Assembly (NCBI GenBank): GCA_041484265.1
Contig: JBGPHH010000003.1
Location: forward strand, 1 to 38,699
Direction: 5' to 3'
DNA: 38,699 nucleotides
Origin: Vicinamibacteria bacterium
GTDB taxonomy: Bacteria; Acidobacteriota; Vicinamibacteria; Vicinamibacterales; CAVVIG01
The notes under the pieces are model-generated. The model did not search any database, was not told where the DNA came from, and worked only from the letters and a program-made list of their open reading frames with translations. The position numbers and the translations under genes were made by a program. Below, one piece after another: positions 10,271-37,421 of the stretch. Position 1 is the stretch's first letter. Each line of letters begins with the position of its first letter.

Positions 10271-10274
10271 CCCC

Positions 10275-11879: not shown

Positions 11880-11894
11880 CGGCACTGCGCTTGC
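11880..11894 (+). promoter_or_regulatory. Sigma54 (-24/-12) promoter for the dioxygenase-DUF6644 operon
   Basis: CGGCAC-TGCGC-TTGC, exact GG-N10-GC, about 50 nt upstream of ATG 11945. Confidence 0.72.
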
Positions 11895-11944
11895 GAAGGG
11901 CTACCTCACGACCGGAGGGCACCGGAAGTTCTGAGGAGCCAGGC

Positions 11945-15658: not shown

Positions 15659-15669
15659 AGATGCCAGCG

Positions 15670-16890: not shown

Positions 16891-16906
16891 CGTTGCGCGT
16901 GCACGG

Positions 16907-20727: not shown

Positions 20728-20999
20728 GCGGGCTCTGTGCTGCCCTGCGCTCTAATGTACTCAGCGATGGCATCGACCGAGCGCAGCACCTTCATCCCGG
20801 TCTCTTCGTCTCGGATCGCGACGCCGAACGAACGCTCGATCTCCAGTACCAGTTCCAGCACGTCGATGGAGTCGAGCCCGAGGCCGCCCTCGAACAACGG
20901 GGTCGCATCGCCTATTTCTTCCCAGGCGATGGGAAGCCGGAGGCTGCGCACGATACCCTGTTTGATCTGCACCTTCAGCGGGTCAGCCGTTTCTGTCAT
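20724..20999 (-). CDS. Acyl carrier protein (aryl-polyene-type ACP)
   Basis: PLFEGGLGLDSIDVLEL with the phosphopantetheine Ser; acidic, ~91 aa; alternative GTG start at 21002. Confidence 0.92.
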   Translation of the reverse strand: MTETADPLKVQIKQGIVRSLRLPIAWEEIGDATPLFEGGLGLDSIDVLELVLEIERSFGVAIRDEETGMKVLRSVDAIAEYIRAQGSTEPA

Positions 21000-21013
21000 C
21001 ACGCGTTCCTATG

Positions 21014-22970: not shown

Positions 22971-22978
22971 GGCCGCGT

Positions 22979-22988
22979 ACGTTACCAT
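22979..22988. promoter_or_regulatory. Overlapping divergent -10 elements (probable leaderless promoters) for the CLF operon and lolA-like gene
   Basis: Plus-strand TACCAT lies 6 nt before ATG 22995; minus-strand TGGTAACGT lies 8 nt before GTG 22970. No SD sequences. Confidence 0.45.
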
Positions 22989-22994
22989 GAGCCG

Positions 22995-23672
22995 ATGAGG
23001 CCTCACACGACCGCACGATGGTCGGCCCGGCGGCGACGGACCGTCGCATCGGTCGTCATGGTGTTCGCGGCGGCGGCCCTCCTGACGGCGCAGCGGAAGT
23101 CCGCCGCGGATGATGCCTTCGACTCCCTCTATCGTCACGGATCCGAGATCAACGCGAGCCTCAAGACGCTCACCGCGCGGTTCACCGAGACGACGACCTC
23201 CTCGCTCCTGACGCGTCCGCTCGTCGCGCGTGGCACGCTCGCCGTCGTCCGGCCCTCGCGCGTGATCCTGCGCTACATCGAACCGGACACCCGCATCGTG
23301 CTGATCGATGGCAATCGGATGACGATGTCGTGGCCGAGCCGGAGCATCCGGCAAGTGACCGACATCGGCGCCGCGCAGGGACGCATTCAGAAGTACTTCG
23401 TGAACGGCTCGGTCGAGGACCTGCGGCACGAGTTCGAGATCGACGATCACGGGGCGAGCGACCGTCGCGGCACGTATCACGTGAGCCTGGTGCCGAAGCG
23501 GAAGCAGATTCGCGAGACGCTGGCGCGACTTGACCTGTGGGTGGGTCAATCATCGCTGCTGCTCGAGACGCTGCAGATGACGTTCGCCAACGGCGACACC
23601 AAAGAGATGGCGTTCGAGGACGTGGTGCCAAACGCGTCGATCGACCCGGCCGCGTTTAGCGTCGACCGATAA
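22995..23672 (+). CDS. LolA-like outer-membrane lipoprotein/lipid carrier
   Basis: Signal/TM segment, then LTARFTETTTSSLLTRPLVARGTL..RPSRVILRYIEPD..LIDG, and LETLQMTFANGDTKEMAFEDV..N..IDPAAF. Confidence 0.82.
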   Translation: MRPHTTARWSARRRRTVASVVMVFAAAALLTAQRKSAADDAFDSLYRHGSEINASLKTLTARFTETTTSSLLTRPLVARGTLAVVRPSRVILRYIEPDTRIVLIDGNRMTMSWPSRSIRQVTDIGAAQGRIQKYFVNGSVEDLRHEFEIDDHGASDRRGTYHVSLVPKRKQIRETLARLDLWVGQSSLLLETLQMTFANGDTKEMAFEDVVPNASIDPAAFSVDR

Positions 23673-25134
23673 CCTCTAGCGGGAGCGCGGCCGGTGAGAC
23701 GGCCGGGCGCGCCAGGAGCGCGTGCGCCGACGGCGCGAGATCGTACTCGCGGAGATAGTGCTCCACGTCCATCAGCCGCTGGGTCCGGCGAAGCGCTCGG
23801 AGCAGGAACAGAGCATTCCGCCACTCGACTTCGCGCAGCCACTGGTCCAACCTCTTCCGGCCTTTCAGATTGAGCGCCGAGCGCCGCCACGTCTCGCAGT
23901 ACAGCTCAAAAAACCGGCGCGCACCAAGGGCCGGTTCCCACAGCAGGTGGTGCATGTCGAAATGCGCCCAGCGTGTGGCGCGCAGCCTCGCCTTCATCTC
24001 CTCGAAATAGGCGGTGCCGGGCAGCGGTGTCAGGATCGTGAACCCGGCCTGAAAGAGCTGGTGCCGCTCCACAAAAGCCCAGAGGCGCTCAAAATCGGCT
24101 TCGTTCCACGACAGATCGATGACGAAGTTGCCGGTGACGCCGTACCCGTAGTGCCGCGCGATCTCCACGCCGCGCGCGGTCTCCTCGACCGTTTGGTCCT
24201 TCGTGAGTCCGTCAAGCCCTTCGTTGGTCGCCGCCTCGAGCCCGAAGAAGACGTCGAACGTCCGCGCGAGCGGGCGCCAGGCCTCGAGCAGTTCCGGGTG
24301 CCGCGCCACAAGGTCGACGCGGCTCTGCACCAACACCCACTCCTTCCCGATGCCGCGACGCCTGAGCTCGTGGGCCAGCTCCAGGCTCCGGGACGGATGG
24401 TGCCAGAACAGATCGTCGGCCACGAAGACGTGATCGCCCACCGACGCGAAGTCGCGGCACACCGCATCAACCGATCGTTCGCGTACGACGCGCGCGTGCA
24501 GTTGCCAAATGGAGCAGAACGAACAGCGGAACGGACAGCCGCGAGCCGTCTCGACGAGCCAGGCCGGGCGATGGGCGAAGCACGCGTACTCACGGCGCCA
24601 CGGCGCGACCAGATGCCTCGCGGGGAGCGGCACTTCGTCGAGCGTTAAGGTCCCGGTCTCTCCTGCCGTGCGGACGACGGCGCCGCCTGGGTCTGCCAGC
24701 GCCAGCCCTGGCACCGTGCTCAGCGATCGGCCGCTCTCGAGCGCGTCGCAGATGCCCGGCAGCGCCCGCTCCCCGTCGTCGAGAACGACCGCGGCGACTT
24801 CAGGGACGAGGAATGGGTCTGGATACGCGGCCGCCGTGTGGCCGCCGACCACGATCGGCACGTCGGGAGAACGCTCACGCACGCGCCGCGCGAGCGCCAC
24901 CACGTCGTCGGTCTCGAGCGCGTGCATCGCGGCAATGCCGACGAGCGCCGGTCGCTCCACGCGCATCATGGACTCGAGCGAGCGACTGAACCGCAAGTCG
25001 GCGATCGTCACCCGGTGTCCGCGGGCTTCGAGCGCCGCCGCGATGTACTCCATCCCGAGCGGCTCGATGCGAAAGAACGGCCCGAGGCCGAAGCGTTCGT
25101 TGCCGGGGACCGGACGAAGCAGCAACACGTTCAT
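23656..25134 (-). CDS. Cobalamin-binding radical SAM protein (class B methyltransferase, HpnR-like)
   Basis: N-terminal B12-binding domain (EPLGMEYIAAAL..GH, VVGGHTA), RGCPFRCSFC, VADD, FGLEA, TPLPGT, FDMHH. Confidence 0.88.
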   Translation of the reverse strand: MNVLLLRPVPGNERFGLGPFFRIEPLGMEYIAAALEARGHRVTIADLRFSRSLESMMRVERPALVGIAAMHALETDDVVALARRVRERSPDVPIVVGGHTAAAYPDPFLVPEVAAVVLDDGERALPGICDALESGRSLSTVPGLALADPGGAVVRTAGETGTLTLDEVPLPARHLVAPWRREYACFAHRPAWLVETARGCPFRCSFCSIWQLHARVVRERSVDAVCRDFASVGDHVFVADDLFWHHPSRSLELAHELRRRGIGKEWVLVQSRVDLVARHPELLEAWRPLARTFDVFFGLEAATNEGLDGLTKDQTVEETARGVEIARHYGYGVTGNFVIDLSWNEADFERLWAFVERHQLFQAGFTILTPLPGTAYFEEMKARLRATRWAHFDMHHLLWEPALGARRFFELYCETWRRSALNLKGRKRLDQWLREVEWRNALFLLRALRRTQRLMDVEHYLREYDLAPSAHALLARPAVSPAALPLEVIGRR

Positions 25135-25223
25135 GGCGGGACGTGAATGTAACACACCCATGCGGCTGCTATACTTCGCGGCGCGAGGGCCCAGGGCTCC
25201 GCCATTCCGCTGTGGCTTTCTCG

Positions 25224-27668
25224 ATGTCCGCAATCGTGGCCTGGGCGCATCGCCACCGCGCGCTCGTGGTCGGTCTGGTGCTCGGCGCGCTGGTCGGCGC
25301 TATCGCCGGCGCGCGGCGGCTGACCTTTGACGCCGACGTGCTGTCGCTACTGCCGCGCGACAGCGCCGTCGTTCAGTCCTTCCGCCAGTTTCTCGCCCGC
25401 TTCGGAAGCCTGGATCAACTGTACGTGGTGTTCACCGCGCCCGAAGGGCATGCGGTCTCGGAGTACAACACCGAGATCAACCTGTGGGTCGACCGCCTTC
25501 GATCGGCTCCTGAGATAGCCCGTGTCGATGCGGGCGTCGCCGACCGCACGCGTGACTTTGGCTGGCTCGCCGACCGTCAGCTGCTCGTGTTGCAGGGGCG
25601 CTCGCTCGACGAGGCGCTGCGGCGACTGCGACCGGAAGGCATGGGAAACGCCGTGGCCGCCAGGCGCGAGCTGCTGACCGTACCCTCGACGGACGTCGCC
25701 GAACTGATCCGTCAGGACCCGGCCGGACTCTTCGATGTCTTGCGCGACGCACTCGGGGGCGCACAGGCCGGCTCCATGCTCGGCGTGTCCGAGAACGGCT
25801 ACGTGACGGCGGACGGCCACAGCCGGCTGGTGATCGCGCGGCCCAAGAGGCCGCCCTACGACGCGGCGTTTTCGCGAGCGCTCGACGCCCGGCTGCGCGA
25901 GATCCAAACGTCGATGCGCTCGAGCGGCGCGACGCCGCACGAGAGCGACGCCGACTCGTTGCCGCCGCTCACCGTGGTGTTCGCCGGCGGCCATCGCATC
26001 GCGGTCGAGACGGAAGCCTTCGTCCGGCGAGAGAGCATCATGAATACGGTTGGATCGCTCGCCATGATCCTGCCCCTCTTGTTTGTCGTCTTCCGGAGTT
26101 TCTGGCTGGTCGTGGTCGGCTCGCTCCCGTCGGCGCTCTCCCTCGTCATGACTCTTGGCGTGCTCGGATTCAGCGGCGCGCGGTTGTCGGCTGCGGCGAC
26201 CGGCGCCGCCGCGATGCTCTTCGGTCTTGGTGTCGACGGCGTGGTGCTGCTGTACGTCGCCTATCGATCGGCGATTGCCGAGAACCCCTCGGCCGATGTG
26301 CCGGCAGCGATTTCCGGGCCATCCACCAGCATGCTCCTCGGGATGTGGACGACGGCCGCGACATTTTACGGATTGATCTTCGTCGACTTCCCCAGCCTGC
26401 AGCAGCTCGGTCTGCTCATCGGTCACAGCATGGTGTTCTGCGGCCTGCTGACGCTGGTGATGGTGCCGGCGCTCCTGCCGCGCCGCCCGCCCGTGCGACG
26501 CGTGCGGCCGTTGCGGATGCCAGGCGTCGCCGCGTGGATCGAGCGCCGCCACCGTGTTGTGCTCGTCGCCGCGCTCGTCTGCACCGCCGTCCTGGGCTAT
26601 TTTGCGACGCGCATCCGGATCGATCCGACCCTTGATCGCCTCCGCTCCACAACCGAGGCCGCGCAGCTCGAAACGAAGATCGGCACGGCGTTCGGTCTTC
26701 CGGGCGATGTGTCCGTCGTGTTGGCGGAGGGGCCGCAACTCGAAACGCTGCTGCAGACTAGTGAAGAACTGGCGCGGAGGCTCGAGGGCGAGCTTCCCGG
26801 CCTTGCGTTTGCGTCGCCGAGCCGGCTGCTGCCGTCGGCCGCGATGCAGGCACGCACGGCCGCGCACATTGCGCGAGCGGGACTCTCGCCGGCGACCGTG
26901 CGTCAGACCCTCGAAGCCGCCCGAGTCGCCAACGGGTTCACGCCGGGCGCGTTCGATCCGTTCGCGGCGCGGCTGCCGCGCCTCCTTGACGGCGATGCGC
27001 GAATCACGTACGACGGCTATGTGTCGCACGGGTTGCAGGATGTGATCGACCGGTTCGTGGTCCACGACGGGGATCGCTGGACGCTCGCCACCTATATCTT
27101 TCCGTCCTCCGATGCACAAGCGACGCGCATTCACGCCATCGTTGACGCCGTCGACTCCACGCAGTCACTCACGGGGCTGGCCCTGGTCAACCGTGAGCTC
27201 TCCCGGCTCTTTCTCCCGCAATTCATCCGAGGTCTCGTCATTGGCAGCGTCATCGTCATCCTGCTTGTTGTCGCGGCGTTCCGGGATGTGAAGCTCTCGT
27301 TCTTCGCGCTGCTCCCGACAGCGATCGGCCTCGTCTGGACCGTCGGCGCACTGGCCATCGCCGGCGTCGAGCTGGATCTGTTCGCCGTTTTTGCAGTCGT
27401 CACCCTCGTCGGGATCGGGGTGGACTACGGCGTCCATCTGGTCCACCGGTACCAGGAGCGCGGCGACGCGACGAGCGCCACGGCGGAGCTCGCACCGGTC
27501 ATTCTGATCGCGGCCGCAATTACGCTCCTTGGCTACGGCACGCTGGTCACGTCCTCGTACCCTCCGCTTCGGTCGATCGGCCTCGTGTCCACGGTCAGCG
27601 TGGTCGCGCTGGCGGTGGCGTCGGTGTGTGTGCTGCCGGCGTTGCTCCTCAGACACGCGCGGCACTGA
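25224..27668 (+). CDS. MMPL/RND-family lipid exporter
   Basis: Two TM repeats with GLGVDGVV and GIGVDYGVHL motifs, large periplasmic loops, FPSLQQLG and YPPLRSIG. Confidence 0.9.
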   Translation: MSAIVAWAHRHRALVVGLVLGALVGAIAGARRLTFDADVLSLLPRDSAVVQSFRQFLARFGSLDQLYVVFTAPEGHAVSEYNTEINLWVDRLRSAPEIARVDAGVADRTRDFGWLADRQLLVLQGRSLDEALRRLRPEGMGNAVAARRELLTVPSTDVAELIRQDPAGLFDVLRDALGGAQAGSMLGVSENGYVTADGHSRLVIARPKRPPYDAAFSRALDARLREIQTSMRSSGATPHESDADSLPPLTVVFAGGHRIAVETEAFVRRESIMNTVGSLAMILPLLFVVFRSFWLVVVGSLPSALSLVMTLGVLGFSGARLSAAATGAAAMLFGLGVDGVVLLYVAYRSAIAENPSADVPAAISGPSTSMLLGMWTTAATFYGLIFVDFPSLQQLGLLIGHSMVFCGLLTLVMVPALLPRRPPVRRVRPLRMPGVAAWIERRHRVVLVAALVCTAVLGYFATRIRIDPTLDRLRSTTEAAQLETKIGTAFGLPGDVSVVLAEGPQLETLLQTSEELARRLEGELPGLAFASPSRLLPSAAMQARTAAHIARAGLSPATVRQTLEAARVANGFTPGAFDPFAARLPRLLDGDARITYDGYVSHGLQDVIDRFVVHDGDRWTLATYIFPSSDAQATRIHAIVDAVDSTQSLTGLALVNRELSRLFLPQFIRGLVIGSVIVILLVVAAFRDVKLSFFALLPTAIGLVWTVGALAIAGVELDLFAVFAVVTLVGIGVDYGVHLVHRYQERGDATSATAELAPVILIAAAITLLGYGTLVTSSYPPLRSIGLVSTVSVVALAVASVCVLPALLLRHARH

Positions 27669-27670
27669 CC

Positions 27671-28342
27671 ATGCGGGCAGTCGCACTGATCCCGGCCTTC
27701 AACGAAGCGCACGCGATCGCCGACGTCGTCACGGGGCTGCGCGGCATCGTCTCGCACGTCCTGGTCGTGGACGATGGGTCGACCGACCAGACGGCGGAGA
27801 GAGCGCGGGCGGCAGGGGCGGAGGTCGTGTCGCACGAGTCGAACTGCGGAAAGGGCCAGGCGGTGCGGACCGGCCTCGCGCATGTCTTCGACGGCGATTT
27901 TTCGCACGTGCTGCTCCTCGACGGAGACATGCAGCATCGGCCGAGCGAGGCCGCGCGGCTGCTCGACGCCGCGGATCGGACCGGCGCCGATCTGGTGCTT
28001 GGCGAGCGGCAGTTCAGTCGCGAGCGCATGCCGGCGGCCCGCTATCACGCGAATCGGATCGGCAGCCGGGCTCTGTCGTGGTTCGTCGGCGCTCCCGTGC
28101 AGGACTCCCAATGCGGGTTCCGCGTGTGCCGGCTCGACGCGCTGCGACACCTGCCGCTCAGGGCGCGCGGCTACGACATCGAAACAGAGATGCTCGTGAA
28201 GCTCCGTCGGAAAGGTGCGCGGCTGGAGCGCATCCCGATCACGGCGGTCTATGCCGCCGAGCGCAGCAACCTTCGTCCGGTCCGCGATACGACGCGGACC
28301 TGTTTTCTGGCGGTGTACTATCGGTTCCTCGAACGCATCTGA
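27671..28342 (+). CDS. Glycosyltransferase family 2 (DPM-synthase-like)
   Basis: LIPAFNE, VVDDGSTD, NCGKGQA, LDGDMQH, DSQCGFR. Confidence 0.92.
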   Translation: MRAVALIPAFNEAHAIADVVTGLRGIVSHVLVVDDGSTDQTAERARAAGAEVVSHESNCGKGQAVRTGLAHVFDGDFSHVLLLDGDMQHRPSEAARLLDAADRTGADLVLGERQFSRERMPAARYHANRIGSRALSWFVGAPVQDSQCGFRVCRLDALRHLPLRARGYDIETEMLVKLRRKGARLERIPITAVYAAERSNLRPVRDTTRTCFLAVYYRFLERI

Positions 28343-28358
28343 CGAACCCGCGGGCACC

Positions 28359-29327
28359 GTGCCTGTGTCGCAGGAAGCGGCGCGTAGGACGATCGAGCCG
28401 CGCCGGTGGACGCTGCACGGCCTCAACAACGGCGCGATTTTCAGGACGACGTGCGCCGCCGTGCGCGTTCTGCCGAAAGCCGTGTCGTATGCGATCGGTG
28501 ACGGCGCCACCTGGGTGGCGTTCGGTCTCATGCCGGCGACGCGCGCGGCGATCGCAGACAACCTGCGGGCGGTGTTTCCGGAGGACTCCCCCCGAGCGCT
28601 CGAGCGCCGCGCCCGGCGAACATTACAAGCCTACGCGCGCGATACGATCGATTTCCTTCGCGCGCTCTCGCTCGACGGCGAGCGCGCGACGGCGCTGTTC
28701 GAGCCGCCGCCTGAGTATCTGCCGCGAATCAACCAGGTGCTCGCGCAGGGTCGCGGCGCGATTCTCGTCACCGGTCACTACGGCAATTGGGAGATTGGCA
28801 GTGTGCTCATGAGCCGGGTGCTGCACCTGCCTCTGGCGATCGTCGCCATGGCCGAGGCGAGCGCGGACGTAAACCGGCGGCGACGGGAGATCCGCGATCG
28901 GCTGGGCGTCGATACCATCGAGGTCCGCCAATCCCTCGACACCGCCCTGCAGATCCGGCGGCGGCTCTCCGACAACGGCATCGTCGCGATGTTGATGGAT
29001 CGGCACCTGGGTCGGGATCGCGTGCAGGTGACGCTGCTCGGGCGACCGGCCTGGTTCCTGCGGACGCCGGCACTGATGGGGTACCTGTGTGGCGCACCGC
29101 TGATGCCCTGCTTCATCCAACGCACGGAGGGCCACCCCCCCTTTTCGTGCCTTCTCGGAGATCCGATCGTGGTGGCGACCGATCGACCGCGCGACGAAGC
29201 CATTCAGCAGGCCACGCAGCAGTTTGCGGATCAGTTGAGCGCGCGCATCCGGCAGCACCCCGAGTACTGGTATCAGTTCTATCGATACTGGGATGCGCAG
29301 CAGGATTCGTACGAAGGGCTCGCCTGA
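28359..29327 (+). CDS. Lysophospholipid / lipid A lauroyl-type acyltransferase (LpxL/HtrB family)
   Basis: VTGHYGNWE (HxxxxE), LMDR, IRQHPEYWYQFYRYW. Start approximate. Confidence 0.88.
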   Translation: MPVSQEAARRTIEPRRWTLHGLNNGAIFRTTCAAVRVLPKAVSYAIGDGATWVAFGLMPATRAAIADNLRAVFPEDSPRALERRARRTLQAYARDTIDFLRALSLDGERATALFEPPPEYLPRINQVLAQGRGAILVTGHYGNWEIGSVLMSRVLHLPLAIVAMAEASADVNRRRREIRDRLGVDTIEVRQSLDTALQIRRRLSDNGIVAMLMDRHLGRDRVQVTLLGRPAWFLRTPALMGYLCGAPLMPCFIQRTEGHPPFSCLLGDPIVVATDRPRDEAIQQATQQFADQLSARIRQHPEYWYQFYRYWDAQQDSYEGLA

Positions 29328-29342
29328 GGGCGGACATCCGTC

Positions 29343-30380
29343 ATGGACCCCATCTCACACGCGATCTTCGGACAAACGGTGGCGACGGCGCTCGGCCGAC
29401 AGGCGTCGCCCCTCCGGGGCCGCGTGATGGCCGGTGTCCTCGGTGCCCTCGCGCCTGACGCGGATGCCGTGTTGATGCCGTTCGGCTGGGACATCTACCT
29501 TCGCGCCCACGAAGTCGGCACGCACTCCCTCGCCGGTAGCGTTGCCGTCGCAGCTGCCGCCGCGCTCATCGCCCGCGCCTTTGCCCGCGATAGCCGGTCG
29601 TCCGACCTGTTCGCCGCGGCGTGGCTCGGTTGTCTCAGCCACATCGCGCTCGACCTCGTGTCGGGTGCGCGCCTCCAGATTGCGTGGCCGTTCGTGACGG
29701 GGCACGTCGGCCTGCCGCTCGTCGCGATGGCAGAGCCGTGGCTCCTGGCCATCTTCGCGGTCGGCGCGGTCGCGCTGGCGATGATGCGGCATCGCCCCCG
29801 CGGGACCGCTTTCGGCGTTGTTGCCGGCGTCGCGGCATTCCTTGGCGTGAAGGCGGTGCTGCTGGCACGCGCGCTGCCCGATTCAAGCGTGGTTTCGCGC
29901 ATCGAGCAGAGTCCGCTGCTCACGCGGATTGTCGAAGCGCGATGGGCGAGCCTGACCGAGTGGTACATGTTCGATCGCCGCGCGGACTCGTTGACCGAGT
30001 GGCAGATCGAGGCCGGACGGTCTCCGATCCTCCTGCTGTCATGGCCAGTGGTGGCGGACTCGCCCCTGGTCCACGACTCGCGCTCGCTCGGCACGGTGCG
30101 GAATTTTCTCGACGTGCACGAGGTCGCCTTCGCGGGCGAGATACCGGCTGGCGACGAGGGGTCGACGGTGCTCTGGTCCGATCTGCGATATTGCTGGCGG
30201 CCTGACGTGGCCGGCGGCGAGGCAAGCCCCGATCCGGTGTTCTCTGCGAGCACGCCGACTGGGCCGGCGCGAATCGCATGTGGGCTGTGGTTTGGCGGCG
30301 CCTTCGACCGGAAGGGCCGCGCGATTAGACAGCTTGTAAAGGTCGGTGGGTGGTGGCAGACGCGTGCGCCGGAACCGTAA
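29343..30380 (+). CDS. Membrane-bound metal-dependent hydrolase (YdjM/YbcI-like)
   Basis: MDPISHA, APDAD, HEVGTHSL, SHIALD, WPF. Confidence 0.8.
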   Translation: MDPISHAIFGQTVATALGRQASPLRGRVMAGVLGALAPDADAVLMPFGWDIYLRAHEVGTHSLAGSVAVAAAAALIARAFARDSRSSDLFAAAWLGCLSHIALDLVSGARLQIAWPFVTGHVGLPLVAMAEPWLLAIFAVGAVALAMMRHRPRGTAFGVVAGVAAFLGVKAVLLARALPDSSVVSRIEQSPLLTRIVEARWASLTEWYMFDRRADSLTEWQIEAGRSPILLLSWPVVADSPLVHDSRSLGTVRNFLDVHEVAFAGEIPAGDEGSTVLWSDLRYCWRPDVAGGEASPDPVFSASTPTGPARIACGLWFGGAFDRKGRAIRQLVKVGGWWQTRAPEP

Positions 30381-31485
30381 CCCGGAAGAGCACGTTGGCG
30401 AACGGCGTGCCCGCACCCATCGGCCGCACCTCTCCCGCCAATCCATGCGAGGCGAAACAGGCGAGCCACTCGTCGGGCGTGCGGAAATGAAACCGCTGTC
30501 GCCAGCGACCAAACGCTAGCGCCTTCACCCTGTTTCCAAGACGCAGGACGGCGAACCGCCAGCCGCCAGACGCGTCGGCTTCACGGATGAGCACCACACC
30601 GCCGGGTTCGAGCGCAGCAGAGACGGTCGCCAGGAGCGCTTCCTGCTCGTGGACCCGCAGCAAATGCAGCACGTCGAAAAGCAGCACGGCTCGGCACGGC
30701 CCGATATCCGCCGTGCGAGCGTCGCCATGCACGATGGTGGCGTCCGATCCAAGCGCCTCCCGTGCTACGGCGGCGGGACGCGACCGCGTTTCGATGCCGA
30801 TCAGGCGGTCGAACTGAGGCGGCCGATTCCAGCCGGCTGGCCAGAACCCCTTGCTGTACCTCGCTCGTGCCTCGGCGAGCATTGCCAGCGCCAGTCCGCC
30901 GCCGCAGCCAATGTCCACGAGCGTGCCGCCAGAAGGCAGCAGCGCTCCGCAGACTGTCGCTCGATACAGTGGGTCGCCACGCAGTTTGCCGCGTGCGAAC
31001 TCCCAGGCGGTAATGCTCGCCGTCGTATAGCGATCCGACGCGTCGTGCACCAGATCGAGGAACACGGCATCGTTCACGGTTCCCCGGATCGAGAGGTACG
31101 TGACCAGCCCGAGCGCCGCACCGAGCGTCGCGCCGAGCGCCAGGCTGCCGGCGAGAATGTCGAGGGCGAAAACGGACAGGTCGGTGGTCTTCGCGGTCTG
31201 CAGCGTCAGCGCGTGAAAGGCCCCGCGCCGGAGCCAGGCGCCGGTCTGCAATTCAGTGAAGAGCAGCGTAGGCGCGACGAGGGGATTCGAAATGTTTGCA
31301 GCGAGATAGGTCTTCAGCCGGTTCAATCCGAACAGCCAGCCGGTGATCCAGCACAGCAGCAGGTGGAAGCCGTAGAACGGCAGACACCCGATGAAGAACC
31401 CGACGCCGACGGCCGTGGCCTCGCGGCCAGCGCCCGCGCCCTCCGTGCGAAGGCCGTAAAACAACCGTCGAACGGTTGCGCGCAT
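30325..31485 (-). CDS. DUF2062 membrane domain fused to a class I SAM-dependent methyltransferase
   Basis: N-terminal VGFFIGCLPFYGFH...LNR...ANISNP (DUF2062); C-terminal KLRGDP, LVDIGCGGG, FDVLHLL, LEPGG. Confidence 0.8.
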   Translation of the reverse strand: MRATVRRLFYGLRTEGAGAGREATAVGVGFFIGCLPFYGFHLLLCWITGWLFGLNRLKTYLAANISNPLVAPTLLFTELQTGAWLRRGAFHALTLQTAKTTDLSVFALDILAGSLALGATLGAALGLVTYLSIRGTVNDAVFLDLVHDASDRYTTASITAWEFARGKLRGDPLYRATVCGALLPSGGTLVDIGCGGGLALAMLAEARARYSKGFWPAGWNRPPQFDRLIGIETRSRPAAVAREALGSDATIVHGDARTADIGPCRAVLLFDVLHLLRVHEQEALLATVSAALEPGGVVLIREADASGGWRFAVLRLGNRVKALAFGRWRQRFHFRTPDEWLACFASHGLAGEVRPMGAGTPFANVLFRVTVPAHASATTHRPLQAV

Positions 31486-31506
31486 CGCGTCATTGTGCCA
31501 TGCGCG

Positions 31507-31917
31507 TTAACTCGCGAGCGTCAGGCTGCCGGACGCGACGAGCCGACCGTCGGCGGTGACCTCGCCTTCGATCTTGATCAAACGTCCCAGCCTGCCGACG
31601 ACGCGCGCGCGCGCCTCGAGGACTTCGCCGGGGCCCGCCGCAGCAGGGAACTTGCAGGGACCGATTCCCGCGATGTGCAGCGCCACCGGCGTGGCCTCGT
31701 CAAACGCGCTGGCCGCGGCGATGCCGCCGGCCTGTGCCAGCATTTCCACCAGAATCACGGCGGGCACCACGGGCCGGCCGGGAAAGTGGCCCTGAAAATA
31801 GAAGTCGTCTGCGGCGGCCGTTCGTCGTCCGACGGCGCTCACTCCGGGCGTGACGTCAGTCACAGCCTCCAGCAGCCGCATCGGCGGGTGATGCGGAAGT
31901 CGATCGAGCCATGTCAT
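31507..31917 (-). CDS. 3-hydroxyacyl-ACP dehydratase (FabZ/FabA hot-dog fold)
   Basis: LPHHPPMRLL, FQGHFPGRPVVPAVILVEMLAQ (His/Glu catalytic pair). Confidence 0.9.
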   Translation of the reverse strand: MTWLDRLPHHPPMRLLEAVTDVTPGVSAVGRRTAAADDFYFQGHFPGRPVVPAVILVEMLAQAGGIAAASAFDEATPVALHIAGIGPCKFPAAAGPGEVLEARARVVGRLGRLIKIEGEVTADGRLVASGSLTLAS

Positions 31918-31928
31918 CGCGGGGCCAC

Positions 31929-31936
31929 AGTATACT
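31929..31936. promoter_or_regulatory. Palindromic bidirectional -10 element AGTATACT between the divergent dehydratase and AMP-ligase genes
   Basis: TATACT on both strands, 9 and 11 nt from the two start codons, in a 28-nt intergenic gap with no SD sequence. Confidence 0.5.
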
Positions 31937-31945
31937 TTCCAGCTC

Positions 31946-33391
31946 GTGAAGGCCATCGTCGATCGGTTCGCCGGCGTCCGCCGCAGCGATCCTCAGCGAC
32001 CCCTCATCCATCTGCCCACCACGAATCGGACGCTGACGGCATCCGACGTCGACGACCGCTGTCGGCAGTATCAGCATCTGCTCGCGTCGATGGGCATCGA
32101 GGCCGGCGACCTGGTGCTGTCTGCGAGCGGCAACCGCGCTGGAACCTTTCCCCTTCTGCTCGCCTGTTGGACGATCGGTGCCCCGGTTCTTCCGGTCGAC
32201 GGCGCGACGCCCATCGCCGAGGTGCTCGAGCTCGCCGAGCAGTTCCATGCGTCAGCCGTCGTGGTGCCGACAAGGGTGGCCGACGGATCGAGTGTTCGAC
32301 CGCTCGACCATGAGCTGTCGGTGCTTTCGCGGGATGCGTCGCCCGACCCGTCGTATCGCGGCGCGGCACTCCTGAAACTGACATCCGGATCGACCGGTGT
32401 GCCCAAGGCCGTGCTCGCGACGGAGGTGCAGCTGGTAGCCGACACCGAACACCTCGTGTCCGCGATGGGTATCACCGCCGCTGACGTGCAGCTGGCGGCC
32501 ATTCCACTCTCGCATACATACGCGTTCGGGACGCTCGTGATGCCACTGCTGCTCCAAGGGACGTCGATCGTGCTCCGCGAGTCGTTCGTGCCGCAGGAGC
32601 TTGTGGCCGACGCCCGGCAGTATGGGGCGCGGGCGTTTCACGGCGTGCCATTCATGTATCAACACTACCTCGCGCATCCGCCGGCCGGCGGCTGGCCGCC
32701 CACGCTGACGCTCCTGGTATCTGCGGGCGCCCGCCTCGCACTCGAGACCGTCCGCGGCTTTTACGAGCGTTTTGGCCTGAAGATCCACTCGCTCTACGGC
32801 ACGACTGAAACGGGCGGCATCACGTTCGACACCGACGACGATCGGGACGATGTGCCCACGGTCGGCCGGCCACTATCAGAAGTAACGATCGACCTGCGGC
32901 CGGACGCGGGCGTGCCCCCGGGGCACGGCCGCATCCACGTGCGCGGCCCGGCCGTGTGTCCACGATATGTCGGCGACGCCGCTGAGAGCGGCGAACTGAG
33001 CGTCGGAGGCTTTCTGACAGGCGACTACGGGCGCCTGCTCGCTGACGGCCGGCTCGTCCTGGCCGGCCGCGTGTCGTCGTTCATCAATGTCGCGGGACGC
33101 AAGGTGCAGCCGGGTGAGGTCGAGCGCGTCTTGCGAGAAATGGACGGCGTCGCCGATGCGCGAGTGTTGGCAGCCACCGACGTGGCGCGCGGGGAACAGG
33201 TCACGGCAGTCGTCGCCGGACCGCCCGGCCTGACACTCGCAGCGGTCCGGCAGCACTGCACCCGCCGGCTGGCGGCGTACAAGATCCCGAGAATCGTGGT
33301 GGTCGTCGACCGGTTGCCACTGACGTCCAGGGGGAAAACGGACTACCGCGCGCTCGATGCGCTCGTGAGAGCGCACCGGACAGTTCAATAG
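31946..33391 (+). CDS. Adenylate-forming acyl-CoA/acyl-ACP ligase (probable starter-loading enzyme)
   Basis: LTSGSTGVPK, YGTTETG, GFLTGDYG, GR..FINVAGRKV.P.EVE, LPLTSRGK. Confidence 0.9.
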   Translation: MKAIVDRFAGVRRSDPQRPLIHLPTTNRTLTASDVDDRCRQYQHLLASMGIEAGDLVLSASGNRAGTFPLLLACWTIGAPVLPVDGATPIAEVLELAEQFHASAVVVPTRVADGSSVRPLDHELSVLSRDASPDPSYRGAALLKLTSGSTGVPKAVLATEVQLVADTEHLVSAMGITAADVQLAAIPLSHTYAFGTLVMPLLLQGTSIVLRESFVPQELVADARQYGARAFHGVPFMYQHYLAHPPAGGWPPTLTLLVSAGARLALETVRGFYERFGLKIHSLYGTTETGGITFDTDDDRDDVPTVGRPLSEVTIDLRPDAGVPPGHGRIHVRGPAVCPRYVGDAAESGELSVGGFLTGDYGRLLADGRLVLAGRVSSFINVAGRKVQPGEVERVLREMDGVADARVLAATDVARGEQVTAVVAGPPGLTLAAVRQHCTRRLAAYKIPRIVVVVDRLPLTSRGKTDYRALDALVRAHRTVQ

Positions 33392-34074
33392 ACGTAGGGG
33401 ACAAGGCGCCAGCGCACGCGGACCGCATAGCGCGCGTACTCCTCACCGAACAGACCCGCGAGCGACCGTTCCTCCATCGGAACGGCCACCAACACGTAGA
33501 CGGACGTGACGACCGCGAACAGCAGGCGGTCGGCGGTCATGAGCGGCGTTCCGAACACACAGAGCAACCAACCGAGGTACAGAGGATGGCGCACCCACCG
33601 GTACGGACCACCGACGTGCAGCGCTCTTGATAGATCCGCGGATCTGATGCCGGCCAGCTCGAGTCCGTCGAGCTTCGCGACCGAGAACACAATCAATCCC
33701 AGGCCGGCGAGTTGAATCCCGGCGTGGCCGACAGCGAGCCATCCGCTCACCTGATAGACATGGCCGCCTATCGGCTGCCAGAGCGCCAGCACGAGAAACA
33801 GGAGCAGACTCGCCGTCCACACGTACACCGATCGGAGAAGTCGGTCGGGGACGACACGCGCCATCTGCGCTTTCACCCGTGGACGCGCGAACACGCTGTG
33901 ATGAAGCGCAAATAAGGCGAACAACAGGATGTCGCTCACTGCTGCCGTCATGTCGAAGGTCAGTCGTGTTGGCGTCTCCCACGTGACGAGATAGCGATAG
34001 ACACAGGCGGAGAGAGAGCCGGCGAAGAGCCCGCCGCCAATCCACACAAACACCCACTCAAGCAATCGGATCAT
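33385..34074 (-). CDS. ICMT/PEMT-family membrane methyltransferase, MddA/nurim-like
   Basis: FALHHSVFAR, RSVYVWTAS, WQPI, GPYRWVRHPLYLG, EERSL...GEEY..Y...V..RLVP. Confidence 0.72.
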   Translation of the reverse strand: MIRLLEWVFVWIGGGLFAGSLSACVYRYLVTWETPTRLTFDMTAAVSDILLFALFALHHSVFARPRVKAQMARVVPDRLLRSVYVWTASLLLFLVLALWQPIGGHVYQVSGWLAVGHAGIQLAGLGLIVFSVAKLDGLELAGIRSADLSRALHVGGPYRWVRHPLYLGWLLCVFGTPLMTADRLLFAVVTSVYVLVAVPMEERSLAGLFGEEYARYAVRVRWRLVPYVY

Positions 34075-34205
34075 TTGGACGTGATGCGGCAAGATTGTAA
34101 GCCGAGAATCGCGGGGAGTCGCAATGCTCGGCCCAAAGTGATTGCCTACTCGGGACTCCTCCGCGGTGCTATCATGCCGCCGACTGATGTGGGAGTAGAT
34201 GGCGT

Positions 34206-36128
34206 ATGAGCCTTTGGAAGCCGGTCGAGCTCGCCCTGACGGGCGGCGCTCGGCTCGCGTGGCCGATATTTCAGGCAGTCAACAGGCGGTTCGAGGGTAA
34301 GTCGTTCCAGCCGCGGTGGTCCGACGCGCCGCTCATGAAGAGCCGCGAGCGGTCGAGCCCGTCGCTCGGATGGCCGCGAACGACCGACTCGCTCTGCCCC
34401 ACCTGCGTGCGGGAGACGCGCGCACGCATCCTTTCGGGCGAACAGTCGATCGAGTCGCTGGTCAATCAGCACGTCGGCGAAATCCCGGCCTCCATCGTCG
34501 AACGGGACGGCAAGATCGTGGTCGAGAAGACCTGCCCGATTCACGGCACGTTTACCGACACGCTCGCGATCAATCCGGATTTCCTCAAGCGCATCGAGTC
34601 GCTCTTCCCCGGGCGCGACTTCGACGCGGTGACCGATCGCCTCCACAATCACGGCACCTCCTCGATCAAGCATGGCCGTGGCGCCGTGCTCACTATCGAT
34701 CTCACGAACCGCTGCAACATGATGTGCGATCCGTGTTTCATGGACGCCAATCAGGTCGGGTACGTCCACGAGCTGACGTTGGACGAAGTCAAGCAGCTCC
34801 TCGACGACGCGGTGAGCATCAAGCCGCGCCGGCAGATGACCGTGCAGTTCTCGGGCGGCGAGCCGACGATCTCGCCGATCTTCCTCGACGCCGTCCGATA
34901 CGCCAGACACGTCGGCTACTTCAGCGTGCAGGCGGCGACCAACGGTATCCGCTTTGCGCAGGAACCGGCGTTCGCGCAGGAGGCGCGCGAGGCGGGTCTC
35001 CGGATCGCTTACCTGCAGTTTGATGGCGTGTCGGAGCAGGCCAACGCGCACCGCAAGGTCGCCAATCTGTTCGACGTGAAGCTGCGCGCGATCGAGAATC
35101 TGCACGCGGCCGGCATCGACGTCTGCCTCGTGGTCACGATCGTGAACACGGTCAACGATCAGCAGGTCGGGCCGATCGTCAAGTTCGCCCTGCAGAACTG
35201 CGACAAGATCAGTTTCGTCTCGTTCCAGCCCGTCTCGTTCACGGGGCGCGACGAAGACATCTCAGACGAGGAGCGCCACGCCAAGCGCTACACCTTGTCG
35301 CACCTCGCAGAAGACCTAAAGCGACAGACAGGAGTGACCGAGCCGCTGCGCGACTGGTTCCCCCTCTCTGCCTCGAGCGTCCTGTCCGATGTCACCGACC
35401 TGCTGCAGGGTCCGGGCGCCGACTGGGGCACGCTCAAGTGCGGCTGCCATCCGGACTGCGGCGTGGGCATGGGGTTCATGGTCAGCAAGAAGACCAAGGA
35501 GTGGGCGCCAGTCTCGGCGTTCATCAACGTCGACCGCGTGCTGCAGGACGCCAAAGTGATCGCCGACACAGCGCGCGGCCGGTGGCTGACGACGGCGCAG
35601 ACGGCGTTGAGCCTGCTGCGCAACTACTCTCCGCTGAGCGCGCCGAAAGGCTTCAATCTGATCGATCTGGTGCGCAAGTTCGACAAGCAGAGCGGTGGAC
35701 AGCTCGGCGGGCGGCTCGGCGCGTGCGAGGACGGAAAACGGAAGAACGACGAGTGGCTGTTGATGTTCGTCGCCGGCATGTGGTTCCAGGATCTCTGGAC
35801 CTACGACTTCCGGCGCACCGAAATGTGCATCATCCCCTACGCGACGCAAATGGGCGAGATCTCCTTCTGCGCCTACAACACGGGCGTCGGATGGCGACAG
35901 ATCGTCGAACAAATGTACCAGAACGCGACCGTCGCCGACTGGTACCGCGAGCACGGCAAGCACCCGGTTTACGCGCACGCCCAGAAGGCCGTGCCGTTGC
36001 CGTCGATGGGGCAGCCCGTGACGCTGCAAATCCCGAAAAACGGCCGCCTCGTGGAATGGTCGCCCAAAGCGGCGCCGGTCGGTGTGCCCGACCTGGCGCT
36101 CGCGTGTGAAGCGTCGGGCCCGGAATAG
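34206..36128 (+). CDS. tes: Radical SAM protein homologous to tetraether lipid synthase Tes/GDGT-MAS (MJ0619 family)
   Basis: TDSLCPTC...KTCPIHG N-terminal metal site; IDLTNRCNMMCDPCF; QFSGGEPT; ATNG; YLQFDG; FQPVSFTGR; CHPDCG; MWFQD..YD; CIIPYAT...SFCAYN. Confidence 0.78.
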   Translation: MSLWKPVELALTGGARLAWPIFQAVNRRFEGKSFQPRWSDAPLMKSRERSSPSLGWPRTTDSLCPTCVRETRARILSGEQSIESLVNQHVGEIPASIVERDGKIVVEKTCPIHGTFTDTLAINPDFLKRIESLFPGRDFDAVTDRLHNHGTSSIKHGRGAVLTIDLTNRCNMMCDPCFMDANQVGYVHELTLDEVKQLLDDAVSIKPRRQMTVQFSGGEPTISPIFLDAVRYARHVGYFSVQAATNGIRFAQEPAFAQEAREAGLRIAYLQFDGVSEQANAHRKVANLFDVKLRAIENLHAAGIDVCLVVTIVNTVNDQQVGPIVKFALQNCDKISFVSFQPVSFTGRDEDISDEERHAKRYTLSHLAEDLKRQTGVTEPLRDWFPLSASSVLSDVTDLLQGPGADWGTLKCGCHPDCGVGMGFMVSKKTKEWAPVSAFINVDRVLQDAKVIADTARGRWLTTAQTALSLLRNYSPLSAPKGFNLIDLVRKFDKQSGGQLGGRLGACEDGKRKNDEWLLMFVAGMWFQDLWTYDFRRTEMCIIPYATQMGEISFCAYNTGVGWRQIVEQMYQNATVADWYREHGKHPVYAHAQKAVPLPSMGQPVTLQIPKNGRLVEWSPKAAPVGVPDLALACEASGPE

Positions 36129-36147
36129 CGGCCCGCCAGAGCCTTCC

Positions 36148-36789
36148 TTATTTGAAATACCAGTGAGCTAGCGCGACGAACCCGGGGCCGCCGACGCTGC
36201 CAACCCCGGCATACGGGTTATTGCTTGGTGTGAACTCGAGCTCGCCGCTCACCCCGAGCTTGGGCACCTGCGGGAAAAACATTTCAACGCCACCAAGAAT
36301 CAGCACGTTGGTGTCGGTCGTGTCGGCAAAGCTGAAGTTCGCAAAGCCTGGATACGACGATTGAATGATGCTGAGGCCGCCACCCACGAAGGGGCGAATC
36401 GAGAGCGGCGCATCCACTTGAAGGGGTGCGAATTCGTAGAGGACGGCGGGCGTGAACTGGGTCGAGGAGTAACCGACGTACCCGTAGTGAGACAGGCCCA
36501 CCTGAAATCCCCAGGGAGACTGGAACCAGGAGCGCAGCGACGCGCCAATGCCGAAGCCGAAGCCGCCGGTCCGGAGGCCGACCCCGAGCTTGCGTTCGTC
36601 GGTGGCCGCAGGCTTCGCGGTTCCCCGACGAACCTGAAAGAGAAACTCAGGGGTCGCCGCGGGCGGGACCACGAGGCTCTGAGCCACCTTTGAGGCATCG
36701 AAGGTGAAGACTTCCTGTGCCGAGGCTGGCGCGACCGCCGCACCGAGCACAACCATCAGGACGCTTCCACCGATCGCCGTCAGACGCAT
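36148..36789 (-). CDS. Small outer-membrane beta-barrel protein (8-strand, OmpA/OmpW-like)
   Basis: Signal peptide ending ASA-Q, AAGGAG RBS, PFVGGG strand, C-terminal HWYFK. Confidence 0.65.
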   Translation of the reverse strand: MRLTAIGGSVLMVVLGAAVAPASAQEVFTFDASKVAQSLVVPPAATPEFLFQVRRGTAKPAATDERKLGVGLRTGGFGFGIGASLRSWFQSPWGFQVGLSHYGYVGYSSTQFTPAVLYEFAPLQVDAPLSIRPFVGGGLSIIQSSYPGFANFSFADTTDTNVLILGGVEMFFPQVPKLGVSGELEFTPSNNPYAGVGSVGGPGFVALAHWYFK

Positions 36790-36865
36790 ACACACGCTCC
36801 TTCAATTAATCCCATCCACGTTCGGCCCTCATCTGCCGCTCAGCCTATCCACCGCAAACCAAACC

Positions 36866-36880
36866 TGTCAATGACATTGA
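36866..36880. promoter_or_regulatory. Nested palindromes TGTCA-A-TGACA and TCAATG-A-CATTGA (candidate operator)
   Basis: Two perfect overlapping inverted repeats in the AT-richer divergent gap between the two OMP genes, about 30 nt before TAATAAT. Confidence 0.4.
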
Positions 36881-36953
36881 GAAACCGGGGATCGGCGGAA
36901 GAATGTGGTTAATAATCGATCTGCTGACTCACGGTCTTCCTGATGGAGCCCAC

Positions 36954-37421
36954 ATGAACACGTCTGCAACACGCACGGTTGTACTGCTCGCCTGTCTGCT
37001 GGTAGGCCTTTCGGCGAGATCCGCTCAGGCGCAAAGCCTCACGGAGATCGGCGGCCGGCTCGGTGTGAGCGGCGATCCGACGCAGTTTTACATCGGCGGT
37101 CACGGCGACTTCGGTCCGGTGATCGACAAGCTCTCGTTCCGTCCGAACCTCGAGCTCGGCGTCGGCGACAATGTCACGGAACTCGGATTCAACTTCGAGT
37201 TCGCGTACAAGATCCCCGTGCCGAACCGGCCGGTGACGGCCTACATCGGAGCCGGACCGGCGCTCGTGATAGCCCACACCACGAATAACACCGACACAGG
37301 AGGTGGATTCAACATCCTGTTCGGCGCGCAGCATTCCAATGGGCTCTTTAGTGAAATCAAGTTCGGGATCCACGCCAGCCCGACCTTCAAGTTCGGTATC
37401 GGCTATTCGTGGAAGCATTGA
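36954..37421 (+). CDS. Small outer-membrane beta-barrel protein
   Basis: Signal peptide ending AQA-Q, GGAG RBS, FRPNLELG, YIGAGPAL, C-terminal FGIGYSW. Confidence 0.65.
   Translation: MNTSATRTVVLLACLLVGLSARSAQAQSLTEIGGRLGVSGDPTQFYIGGHGDFGPVIDKLSFRPNLELGVGDNVTELGFNFEFAYKIPVPNRPVTAYIGAGPALVIAHTTNNTDTGGGFNILFGAQHSNGLFSEIKFGIHASPTFKFGIGYSWKH

Follow-up and report, generated by a model that had tools for sequence, protein, structure and literature searches.

Archaeal Tes, also called GDGT-MAS (GDGT, glycerol dialkyl glycerol tetraether), belongs to the radical S-adenosylmethionine (SAM) enzymes and joins lipid tails, and homologues of it occur in bacteria. Here we describe one such homologue, encoded in a 38,699-nucleotide stretch of contig JBGPHH010000003.1 (hereafter the window) from the metagenome-assembled genome (MAG) GCA_041484265.1 of a Vicinamibacteria bacterium in the order Vicinamibacterales. 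The MAG (G000 in our genome samples; 4.05 Mb, 353 contigs, 72% complete) belongs to Acidobacteriota, which bears out the host phylum presumed when the window was first annotated from its letters. In the archaeal enzyme MJ0619, a rubredoxin-like iron is bound by C9X2C12X20C33X2H36, an N-terminal [4Fe-4S] cluster by C73, C77, C80 and a histidine, and the radical SAM cluster by a CX3CX2C motif; a C-terminal [4Fe-4S] cluster carries the labile ligand Met439, and the substrate carbon is captured on its sulfide (Lloyd et al. 2022, PMC9433317). According to the same report, work on an M439A variant and the observation of an S-C intermediate place catalysis at this C-terminal cluster.

In bacteria, 456 Tes homologues, including acidobacterial ones, have been reported, with a proposed role in the synthesis of branched GDGTs (brGDGTs; Zeng et al. 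2022, PMC8941075), and two homologues were described in S. usitatus (Halamka et al. 2022, PMC10087280). Under stringent criteria, Tes homologues were found in only 3 of 14 acidobacteria that produce iso-diabolic acid, and the study reporting this identified Mss, which is unrelated to Tes (Sahonero-Canavesi et al. 2022, PMC13159169). Mss from Thermotoga maritima and Thermoanaerobacter ethanolicus resembles Tes in being a radical SAM enzyme that couples fatty-acid tails, and it is by this analogy that we propose a function for the window protein below; by that paper's description, however, Mss belongs to another radical SAM family, the organisms encoding it have no Tes homologue, and no mss homologue is described in the acidobacterial genomes selected there (PMC13159169). 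In a 2026 review, bacterial Tes homologues figure only as bioinformatic detections (PMC13459092). That an acidobacterium encodes a Tes homologue is thus already known. What is new here is a Tes-family paralogue embedded in a gene cluster: Acidobacteriota contain two distinct Tes-like lineages, a near-universal stand-alone copy and an accessory copy locked to the cluster. We found no published description of a distinct cluster-embedded Tes paralogue in the part of the literature covered, and supplementary trees and tables may hold these clades (possibly Supplementary Fig. 4 and Table 2 of Zeng 2022, Fig. S10 of Halamka 2022 and table S21 of Sahonero-Canavesi 2022).

The window protein and its place in the Tes family

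The translation contains, in the order given by the initial annotation, every one of the Tes-like motifs listed there: C64-P-T-C67, C110-P-I-H113, C170-NMM-C174-DP-C177 and F340-QPVSFTGR, followed in the C-terminal part by C414-HPD-C418-G, M525-WFQD, C541-IIPYAT and F554-C555-AYN. Pfam recognizes a Radical_SAM domain (residues 166-328, E 5.8e-20) and a Zn_ribbon_HMPTM domain (57-120, E 3.5e-14); the best NCBIfam model is that of Tes (NF045702, E 7e-95, 318.4 bits) and the second best is TrsS (222 bits). Among proteins in the PDB, GDGT-MAS is the sole strong solved relative by sequence (7TOL, E 5.3e-62, residues 90-583), and the match to the Tes/GDGT-MAS family, as judged from these comparisons of sequence, is far above chance. 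The protein also falls within the definition of a bacterial Tes homologue used by Zeng et al. 2022 (BLASTP E<1e-50, identity >20% to archaeal Tes, length >400 aa) when MJ0619 (7TOL), not their MA_1486, is taken as the reference. Its start methionine and first residues are kept in the aligned relatives.

An AlphaFold2 model of the protein (predicted local distance difference test 87.3, predicted template modelling score 0.89), built on a 36-sequence alignment that we call A1, was compared with solved structures in Foldseek. It matched 7TOM and 7TOL over 545 columns at 29-30% identity, with a template modelling (TM) score of 0.87 by target and an E of 1.2e-38 for 7TOM, and is thus predicted to share the overall four-domain fold of GDGT-MAS; the next matches (SkfB, MoaA and viperin) reached TM scores of ~0.5 and cover the radical SAM core only. 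Besides the low identity, the window protein differs from GDGT-MAS in an N-terminal extension of ~55 residues, which the model renders as a helix, and in a C-terminal tail that is disordered.

The rubredoxin-like site (C64, C67, C110 and H113) is aligned and conserved, with a 22-residue insert after the CxxC that brings the CX2C...CX2H spacer to 42 residues compared with 20 in the archaeal enzyme. The radical SAM cysteines C170, C174 and C177 are invariant in the 36 sequences of A1, as are M525, C418, C541 and C555; M525 is aligned with Met439, and the three cysteines are the probable ligands of the C-terminal cluster. The window protein is therefore a member of the Tes/GDGT-MAS family with an intact radical SAM site and an intact C-terminal cluster site, and the homology first noticed from its motifs is upheld by fold, sequence match and metal-site residues.

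To place the protein, an exhaustive search of representative sequences returned 8283 proteins with E<=1e-3, of which 564 reached E<=1e-30, and 54 sequences were aligned: the window protein, 11 of its own clade, 16 of the core acidobacterial type, 6 Myxococcota-like and 20 library representatives. Nine of the 20 full-length library representatives scored pass the Tes cut-off, which in a control was passed in 3 of 14 named genomes. A quick maximum-likelihood tree of the 54 rows was then read with its limits in view (LG+G4, branch support from the Shimodaira-Hasegawa-like approximate likelihood ratio test (SH-aLRT) only, rooted on a self-chosen divergent trio, long archaeal branches flagged). It groups the bacterial sequences in one clade (SH-aLRT 99), the sister of which consists of P0126 and the sequences that pass the Tes cut-off (99 as well). 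The bacterial clade itself contains a clade of 12 rows with the window protein (100) and another of 16 rows made up of the core acidobacterial type (100), and its Myxococcota-like rows split into two groups apart from each other (one of 4 rows, the other L007/L009; support 100 for both); how these subclades branch relative to one another is not settled. On this evidence the protein belongs to the known group of bacterial Tes homologues and not inside the archaeal Tes clade. Membership in the Tes clade proper, which the initial annotation had made a test of its reading, did not hold: the protein lies in the bacterial sister clade, below the NCBIfam cut-off and without the cysteines of the N-terminal cluster, as detailed below.

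As a side observation, the library representatives P0128, P0143 and P0163 form a Tes-like group that keeps the rubredoxin-like and radical SAM sites and has lost C418 and C541; P0128 also lacks C555, and P0143 and P0163 also lack the methionine. Presumably this is a family with different chemistry.

The window MAG encodes a second Tes homologue. It lies at a contig end (C286:3-791, minus strand), where only its first 263 residues are assembled, and it shares 78-90% identity with the widespread acidobacterial type (80.5% with the locus in a Solibacter usitatus MAG) but only 62-65% with the closest relatives of the window protein. The window protein, in turn, is 76-81% identical to those relatives (L004, L005, L006 and L008; the L006 genome is of the same order, Vicinamibacterales) and ~60% identical to the widespread type. 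Both copies occur together in all five other carriers checked, one of which (G304) has them on a single 4.4-Mb contig, which led us to reject contamination as an explanation of the second copy. A recent duplication within the order was likewise rejected, because the paralogue clade does not fall within the core clade. In G304 the core copy (G304:C2:2411661-2413398) is broken into several pieces, and TGA stops interrupt its matches, which may reflect assembly error or a pseudogene, and the paralogue there is likewise split, into two pieces. Beside the C286 copy lies an open reading frame (ORF), seen in its N-terminal sequence only, that resembles a pyridine-nucleotide-disulfide oxidoreductase.

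The core type (that of Zeng et al. 2022, represented by the S. usitatus MAG locus L061 and Granulicella aggregans L060) and the window type are alike in belonging to the bacterial clade at ~60% identity, in having identical conserved metal-binding residues and the same insert, and in lacking the N-cluster cysteines. They differ in that the core proteins form a separate clade and are ~50-60 residues longer, and in distribution: the core copy stands alone and is near-universal in the order, whereas the window type is patchy (41/401 genomes) and always linked to a cluster. A Tes match at E<=1e-40, a threshold that admits weaker, non-core matches, was found in 177 of 299 high-quality genomes of the phylum (a tally that takes in the unpublished genomes G145, G023 and G048) and in 24 of the 26 genomes of the window's order in that sample; only G222 among the 299 has an additional copy at 80%. 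All-against-all ORF clustering of 80 core-type loci revealed no neighbour conserved in more than 16 of them, the most frequent being an ABC ATPase (16 loci) and a QueG-like protein (14).

The adjacent cluster and its linkage to the paralogue

Upstream of the window gene lies a cluster (14057-33391; Table 1) that we scanned with Pfam and NCBIfam; several of its ORF starts overlap neighbouring genes, and the true starts are probably later. The neighbours named in the initial annotation, an acyl carrier protein (ACP), ketosynthases, an acyltransferase, a B12-binding radical SAM protein and an MMPL transporter, are all present by Pfam, with one opposite-strand gene between them and the window gene. 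The idea of a plain fatty-acid cluster fared less well. The cluster resembles more a type II polyketide synthase (PKS)/fatty-acid synthase (FAS) cluster of the aryl polyene (APE) type with a halogenase-like gene, and the location of the window gene within such a cluster, in a bacterial host, is a further difference from the archaeal enzyme. With the APE cluster of E. coli CFT073, as given in Table 1 of Johnston et al. 2021 (PMC8253772), it shares nine functional classes by domain annotation: SAM methyltransferase, ketosynthases, ACP, acyl-ACP synthetase, ketoreductase, glycosyltransferase, lipid acyltransferase, LolA-like protein and resistance-nodulation-division (RND)/MMPL transporter. In contrast to the APE cluster, genes for a dehydratase, a thioesterase, DUF3261 and COG4648 were not recognized here, whereas the Tes paralogue, the halogenase-like flavoprotein, the B12-binding radical SAM protein, the deacetylase-like protein and the YdjM-family protein are extras; the LolA-like protein, at ~1000 residues, is also unlike its APE counterpart, and the likeness is one of functional classes. 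Because the nine classes are common to both but dehydratase and thioesterase, the enzymes on which polyene formation and release depend, were not recognized, we call the cluster aryl-polyene-like in architecture and not a member of the APE family.

Several cluster proteins merit comment. The halogenase-like flavoprotein contains GGGLAG and W-V-W-L-I-P, the latter fitting the WxWxIP pattern that we take to mark halogenases. In the second ketosynthase, the N-terminal 196 residues have no Pfam match. The glycosyltransferase has orthologues that are 54-69% identical in related clusters, and all NCBIfam models of phosphatidylinositol mannoside (PIM) and lipid A acyltransferases score the LpxL/HtrB-family protein below their cut-offs. 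The long LolA-like protein, the ORF of which overlaps its neighbour at the start and probably begins later, shows nothing beyond a short LolA/MucB-like segment to Pfam and NCBIfam; in the ESM Atlas it falls with hypothetical Acidobacteriota clusters, with a weak Omp85/ShlB match at 0.79 that we treat as a lead only. Its family is present, mostly at 30-35% identity, in 115 of 299 high-quality Acidobacteriota genomes (including the unpublished G145 and G023), and related export clusters therefore seem to be common in the phylum. The methylation step that the initial annotation had assigned to the B12-binding radical SAM protein is not a conserved part of the system, an orthologue being present in 2 of 5 relatives checked.

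The linkage of paralogue and cluster was followed in 401 genomes of the order, with the paralogue defined by E<=1e-290 (71-93% identity) and the cluster by an MMPL orthologue at E<=1e-90. The paralogue is present in 41 of the 401 genomes and in 8 of 19 families, and was not found in the two other genomes of the window's own genus. The cluster MMPL gene is present in 78 genomes, including all 41 paralogue carriers; the paralogue is absent from all 323 genomes that lack this gene. In the 40 carriers other than the window genome, the AMP-ligase gene is the immediate upstream neighbour, in the same orientation, in 32 (the gap being 50-320 nucleotides in 30), the MMPL gene lies on the same contig at a distance of <=16 kb in 34, and one or both of these arrangements are found in all 40, each of which has a single MMPL orthologue. 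(Three genomes, G222, G624 with locus L004 and G479 with locus L006, count in both the locus and the order samples.)

The individual loci agree with these counts. In three of the four genome loci that are closest, the ligase gene immediately precedes the paralogue on the same strand, and the fourth (L008/G304) has cluster genes downstream. Ten metagenome contigs carry members of the paralogue clade (72-95% identity); the ligase is upstream in all seven that have >=400 nucleotides of upstream DNA, KS1 follows in L094 and the methyltransferase in L095, and the upstream flanks of L087 and L089 are too short. By comparison, an AMP-ligase match was found in only 1 of 146 core-type loci. Gene order varies between genomes while the paralogue stays inside the cluster: a halogenase-like gene directly follows it in L004, G222 and G304, and G222, like five further genomes of family f10, has no ligase match. 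Conversely, G082 and G274 have orthologous clusters in which every other gene class is present and the paralogue is missing. The three genes downstream of the paralogue, outside the cluster, have no match in related loci. Between genomes the paralogue is 72-81% identical (95% for L087). Of the 12 other cluster proteins, 11 show 43-70%, and the B12-binding radical SAM protein shows 71-80% in its two carriers; by sequence identity, the paralogue thus ranks with the best-conserved members of the cluster. As the linkage survives rearrangement and the paralogue never occurs without the cluster, a functional link is the best reading. The initial annotation had left this link unproven and had named adjacency confined to this one genome as grounds for dropping it; synteny in 40 of 40 other carriers shows otherwise, and comparative genomics now strongly supports the link.

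Proposed function and competing explanations

Our preferred reading, held with moderate confidence, is that the window gene encodes a radical SAM enzyme with an accessory, tailoring role, namely the coupling of alkyl termini in the cluster lipid. The cluster would build an acyl or polyketide chain on the ACP by means of the AMP-ligase, the two ketosynthases and the ketoreductase (KR); the chain would be decorated by the methyltransferase, the halogenase-like flavoprotein and sometimes the B12-binding radical SAM protein, attached to a glyco- or phospholipid anchor by the GT2 glycosyltransferase, the deacetylase-like protein and the LpxL-type acyltransferase, and exported to the outer membrane via the MMPL and LolA-like proteins. 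If the enzyme acts as Tes does, a 5'-deoxyadenosyl radical would take hydrogen from a terminal alkyl carbon, the carbon radical would be caught on the sulfide of the C-terminal [4Fe-4S] cluster, and attack by a second alkyl radical would form the C(sp3)-C(sp3) bond, joining two alkyl termini of the cluster lipid into a dimeric (bipolar) or macrocyclic envelope lipid. Substrate, coupling reaction and product are thus what we infer for the window enzyme from its family and its gene neighbourhood.

Several points weigh against this reading. The score of the window protein lies below the equivalog cut-off of NF045702 (450 bits). None of the cysteines for the auxiliary N-terminal cluster is present in the protein, the corresponding segment of which reads RLHNHGTSSI...KHGRG; all 35 rows of the bacterial clade are without them and show LHNHG(T/S)S...(K/Q)(H/Y)GRG, whereas most archaeal-type rows have CPxxCGxC...H. 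With these ligands gone, the cofactor set is unlike that of GDGT-MAS and the chemistry could therefore differ. Thirty-seven of the 78 clusters (the unpublished G561 being counted among them) are without the paralogue, which must therefore be dispensable for the core product; this number is an upper bound because E<=1e-290 misses copies split by assembly errors, as in G304. The carriers are kin within one order, and their counts are not independent events. Because neither a dehydratase nor an enoyl reductase nor a thioesterase was recognized in the cluster by the Pfam and NCBIfam scans, the product cannot be predicted, and if the cluster makes an aryl polyene, to which its halogenase-like gene and APE-like set of genes point, it is not evident which saturated alkyl terminus the enzyme would couple. 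Finally, a 2025 survey describes bacterial Tes activity as unconfirmed (PMC11868695).

One alternative is that the same scaffold carries out a different radical reaction on the cluster product and does not couple tails, with such outcomes as intramolecular ring closure, a cross-link between chain and anchor or another C-H functionalization. The replaced N-terminal segment, the insert after the CxxC and the sub-threshold Tes score would all fit such a change; the family has already diversified, as the second-best match to TrsS and the trio P0128, P0143 and P0163 without C-terminal cluster residues indicate, and the products of APE-like clusters with a halogenase-like gene are not simple saturated tails. 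However, the residues tied to coupling, namely the C-terminal cluster cysteines, the methionine and the radical SAM motif, are invariant, and the M439A work and the S-C intermediate put catalysis at the C-terminal and not the N-terminal cluster (PMC9433317). Moreover, P0212, an archaeal-type library representative that passes the Tes cut-off with 584 bits, is also without the N-terminal cysteines. The N-terminal cluster is therefore not universal even among proteins that pass the cut-off, its loss is not confined to bacteria, and its loss need not change the reaction. For these reasons we regard a different chemistry as rather unlikely. The bacterial clade would nevertheless be predicted to hold two [4Fe-4S] clusters rather than three, and the missing cluster bears on the role of that cofactor in GDGT-MAS.

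A second alternative is that the window protein is a general membrane-spanning lipid synthase, which couples the iso-C15 chains of ordinary glycerolipids to iso-diabolic acid or brGDGTs, and that the cluster is a mere neighbour in a lipid island. It belongs to the same family as archaeal Tes, and every conserved cofactor residue is common to the core copy; iso-diabolic acid is reported from acidobacterial subdivisions 1, 3, 4 and 6, Zeng 2022 proposes acidobacterial Tes homologues for brGDGT synthesis (PMC8941075) and Halamka 2022 puts forward the two S. usitatus homologues, either singly or together (PMC10087280). Against this stand the core copy already present in the genome, of a type carried by 24 of the 26 genomes that represent the order in the phylum sample; the narrow distribution of the paralogue, which never occurs without the cluster; and its location, which despite rearrangements is within the cluster in 40 of 40 genomes. 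In addition, no PlsA/Ger-type domain (PF06050) turned up in the window MAG, which is 72% complete and in which ElbD, Agps and Grs were not searched for. A general role is in our view distinctly improbable, and any part in iso-diabolic acid or brGDGT synthesis belongs more likely to the core copy on C286 than to the window gene. Of the earlier proposal of a candidate membrane-spanning lipid synthase, the Tes-family assignment thus stands, but not the role of general acidobacterial Tes, the window gene being a patchy paralogue beside that core copy. Least probable by far is the absence of any functional link, with the adjacency being gene order inherited among close relatives: all carriers do belong to one order, and in the window an opposite-strand gene separates the paralogue from the cluster while its downstream neighbour is convergent, but the linkage outlasts rearrangement (with the ligase upstream in most genomes and halogenase-like, KS or methyltransferase genes downstream in others), the paralogue is scattered over 8 of 19 families and missing from all 323 cluster-less genomes, and the flanking genes outside the cluster, including the three downstream ones, are not conserved.

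Returning to an accessory coupling enzyme of the cluster lipid, a wider form of this reading is that a subset of the Vicinamibacterales clusters recruited its own Tes-like enzyme, which would join the alkyl ends of an envelope lipid that is dedicated and exported and may be halogenated and methylated; this we put forward tentatively. If it is true, the product would be a bacterial outer-membrane lipid of a new class, bipolar or macrocyclic and different from both iso-diabolic acid and brGDGTs, tail-to-tail coupling would be a modular tailoring reaction in bacterial specialized lipid metabolism, and counts of Tes homologues in metagenomes would mix at least two functions. As producers of brGDGTs, which find wide use as palaeoclimate proxies, bacterial Tes homologues are the leading candidates. 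The existence of two Tes-like lineages, whatever the function of the second, therefore means that a Tes match is not automatically a membrane-lipid synthase, and bears on gene-based surveys of brGDGT producers. The 41 genomes with cluster and paralogue and the 37 with the cluster only provide a natural experiment, in which a comparison of lipids could reveal the role of the enzyme.

The upstream junction and other features of the window

In the window genome, the opposite-strand methyltransferase gene intervenes between the AMP-ligase gene and the paralogue. It has no tblastn match in 160 related loci and is an insertion between these two genes in the window genome only. An assembly chimera at this junction was considered and rejected: the junction from the AMP-ligase through the methyltransferase to the start of the paralogue is bridged by a unitig from run X1, possibly the sample of origin (30000-34724, 1 difference), and contigs from other studies bridge it at 33749-34255 (X3) and 34120-34580 (X2), with 0 differences each. 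Because of the intervening gene, the paralogue would here need a promoter of its own, and one at 34167-34175 is plausible only because the upstream gene lies on the opposite strand. The candidate extended -10 proposed there in the initial annotation (TGCTATCAT) is present as a string, but a sigma-70 consensus scan of 33300-37000 did not report this site, returning 1 site elsewhere compared with 0.5 expected, and the candidate stays a pattern match. Downstream, the paralogue is convergent with its neighbour.

Table 1. Features of the window, with coordinates, strands and the basis of each assignment
Feature	Position	Strand	Basis
MtrB/PioB-type outer-membrane porin	3735-5894	-	
Multihaem cytochrome	5854-6816	-	
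Cytochrome b with fused cytochrome c domain	6813-8444	-	
Cytochrome c	8741-9205	-	
Flavin-dependent halogenase-like oxidoreductase	14057-15658	+	Pfam Trp_halogenase/FAD; NCBIfam CmlS halogenase and GG-reductase, ~60 bits each
FabF-like ketosynthase (KS1)	15670-16890	-	Pfam; fabF 391 bits vs cut-off 494
~1000-aa protein (1035-aa ORF) with LolA/MucB-like segment, Acidobacteriota-wide family	16907-20014	-	Pfam MucB_RseB/LolA_like, residues 540-596
Polysaccharide-deacetylase-family protein with DUF3473	19849-20727	-	Pfam; NCBIfam XrtA-system deacetylase 209 bits vs 276
Acyl carrier protein	20724-21002	-	Pfam PP-binding, E 8.3e-9
3-oxoacyl-ACP reductase, FabG-like KR	21014-21820	-	Pfam adh_short_C2, E 3.8e-67; NCBIfam NF009466 258 bits vs 222
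Divergent ketosynthase (KS2)	21756-23549	-	Pfam ketoacyl-synt N and C from residue 197; fabF 175 bits vs 494
B12-binding radical SAM protein, variable cluster member	23656-25233	-	Pfam B12-binding and Radical_SAM; HpnR 205 bits vs 650
MMPL/RND lipid transporter	25143-27668	+	Pfam MMPL; NCBIfam HpnN/BstA-like, below cut-off
GT2 glycosyltransferase, polyprenyl-phosphate-sugar type	27626-28342	+	Pfam Glycos_transf_2, E 2.3e-20; NCBIfam AglJ/PpgS-like, below cut-off
LpxL/HtrB-family lipid acyltransferase, true start probably later	28215-29327	+	Pfam Lip_A_acyltrans, E 1.6e-30, from residue 80
YdjM-family membrane hydrolase-like protein	29343-30380	+	Pfam YdjM, E 5.8e-23; orthologues in related clusters
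DUF2062 membrane domain fused to SAM methyltransferase	30325-31485	-	Pfam; orthologues in related clusters
Acyl-AMP/CoA/ACP ligase (AMP-ligase)	31946-33391	+	Pfam AMP-binding; NCBIfam long-chain-fatty-acid-CoA ligase subfamily, 209 bits
ICMT/PEMT-family membrane methyltransferase, MddA-like	33385-34092	-	Pfam PEMT/ICMT; NCBIfam MddA 134.6 bits vs cut-off 270
TGCTATCAT, candidate extended -10, pattern match only	34167-34175	+	String present in sequence
GGGAG, likely ribosome-binding site, 10 nucleotides 5' of ATG	34191-34195	+	Read from sequence
Tes/GDGT-MAS-family radical SAM protein, cluster-associated paralogue	34206-36128	+	ORF listing: 640 aa, ATG start

The ORFs at 36148-36795, 36903-37421 and 23182-23631 have no family match in the Pfam and NCBIfam scans. 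The contig depth, summed over four sediment metagenomes, rises 10- to 50-fold at 34640-34929 and 35800-36089; as these are the most conserved segments of the Tes gene, many other organisms in those samples must carry Tes-family genes.

Elsewhere in the window, the four minus-strand genes at 3735-9205 form a module resembling an extracellular-electron-transfer or iron-oxidation system. The gene at 10230-11843 encodes a C-terminal AAA_33 kinase-like domain behind a 350-residue N-terminus without assignment, and is followed at 11777-12841 by a gene for an intradiol (catechol-type) dioxygenase.

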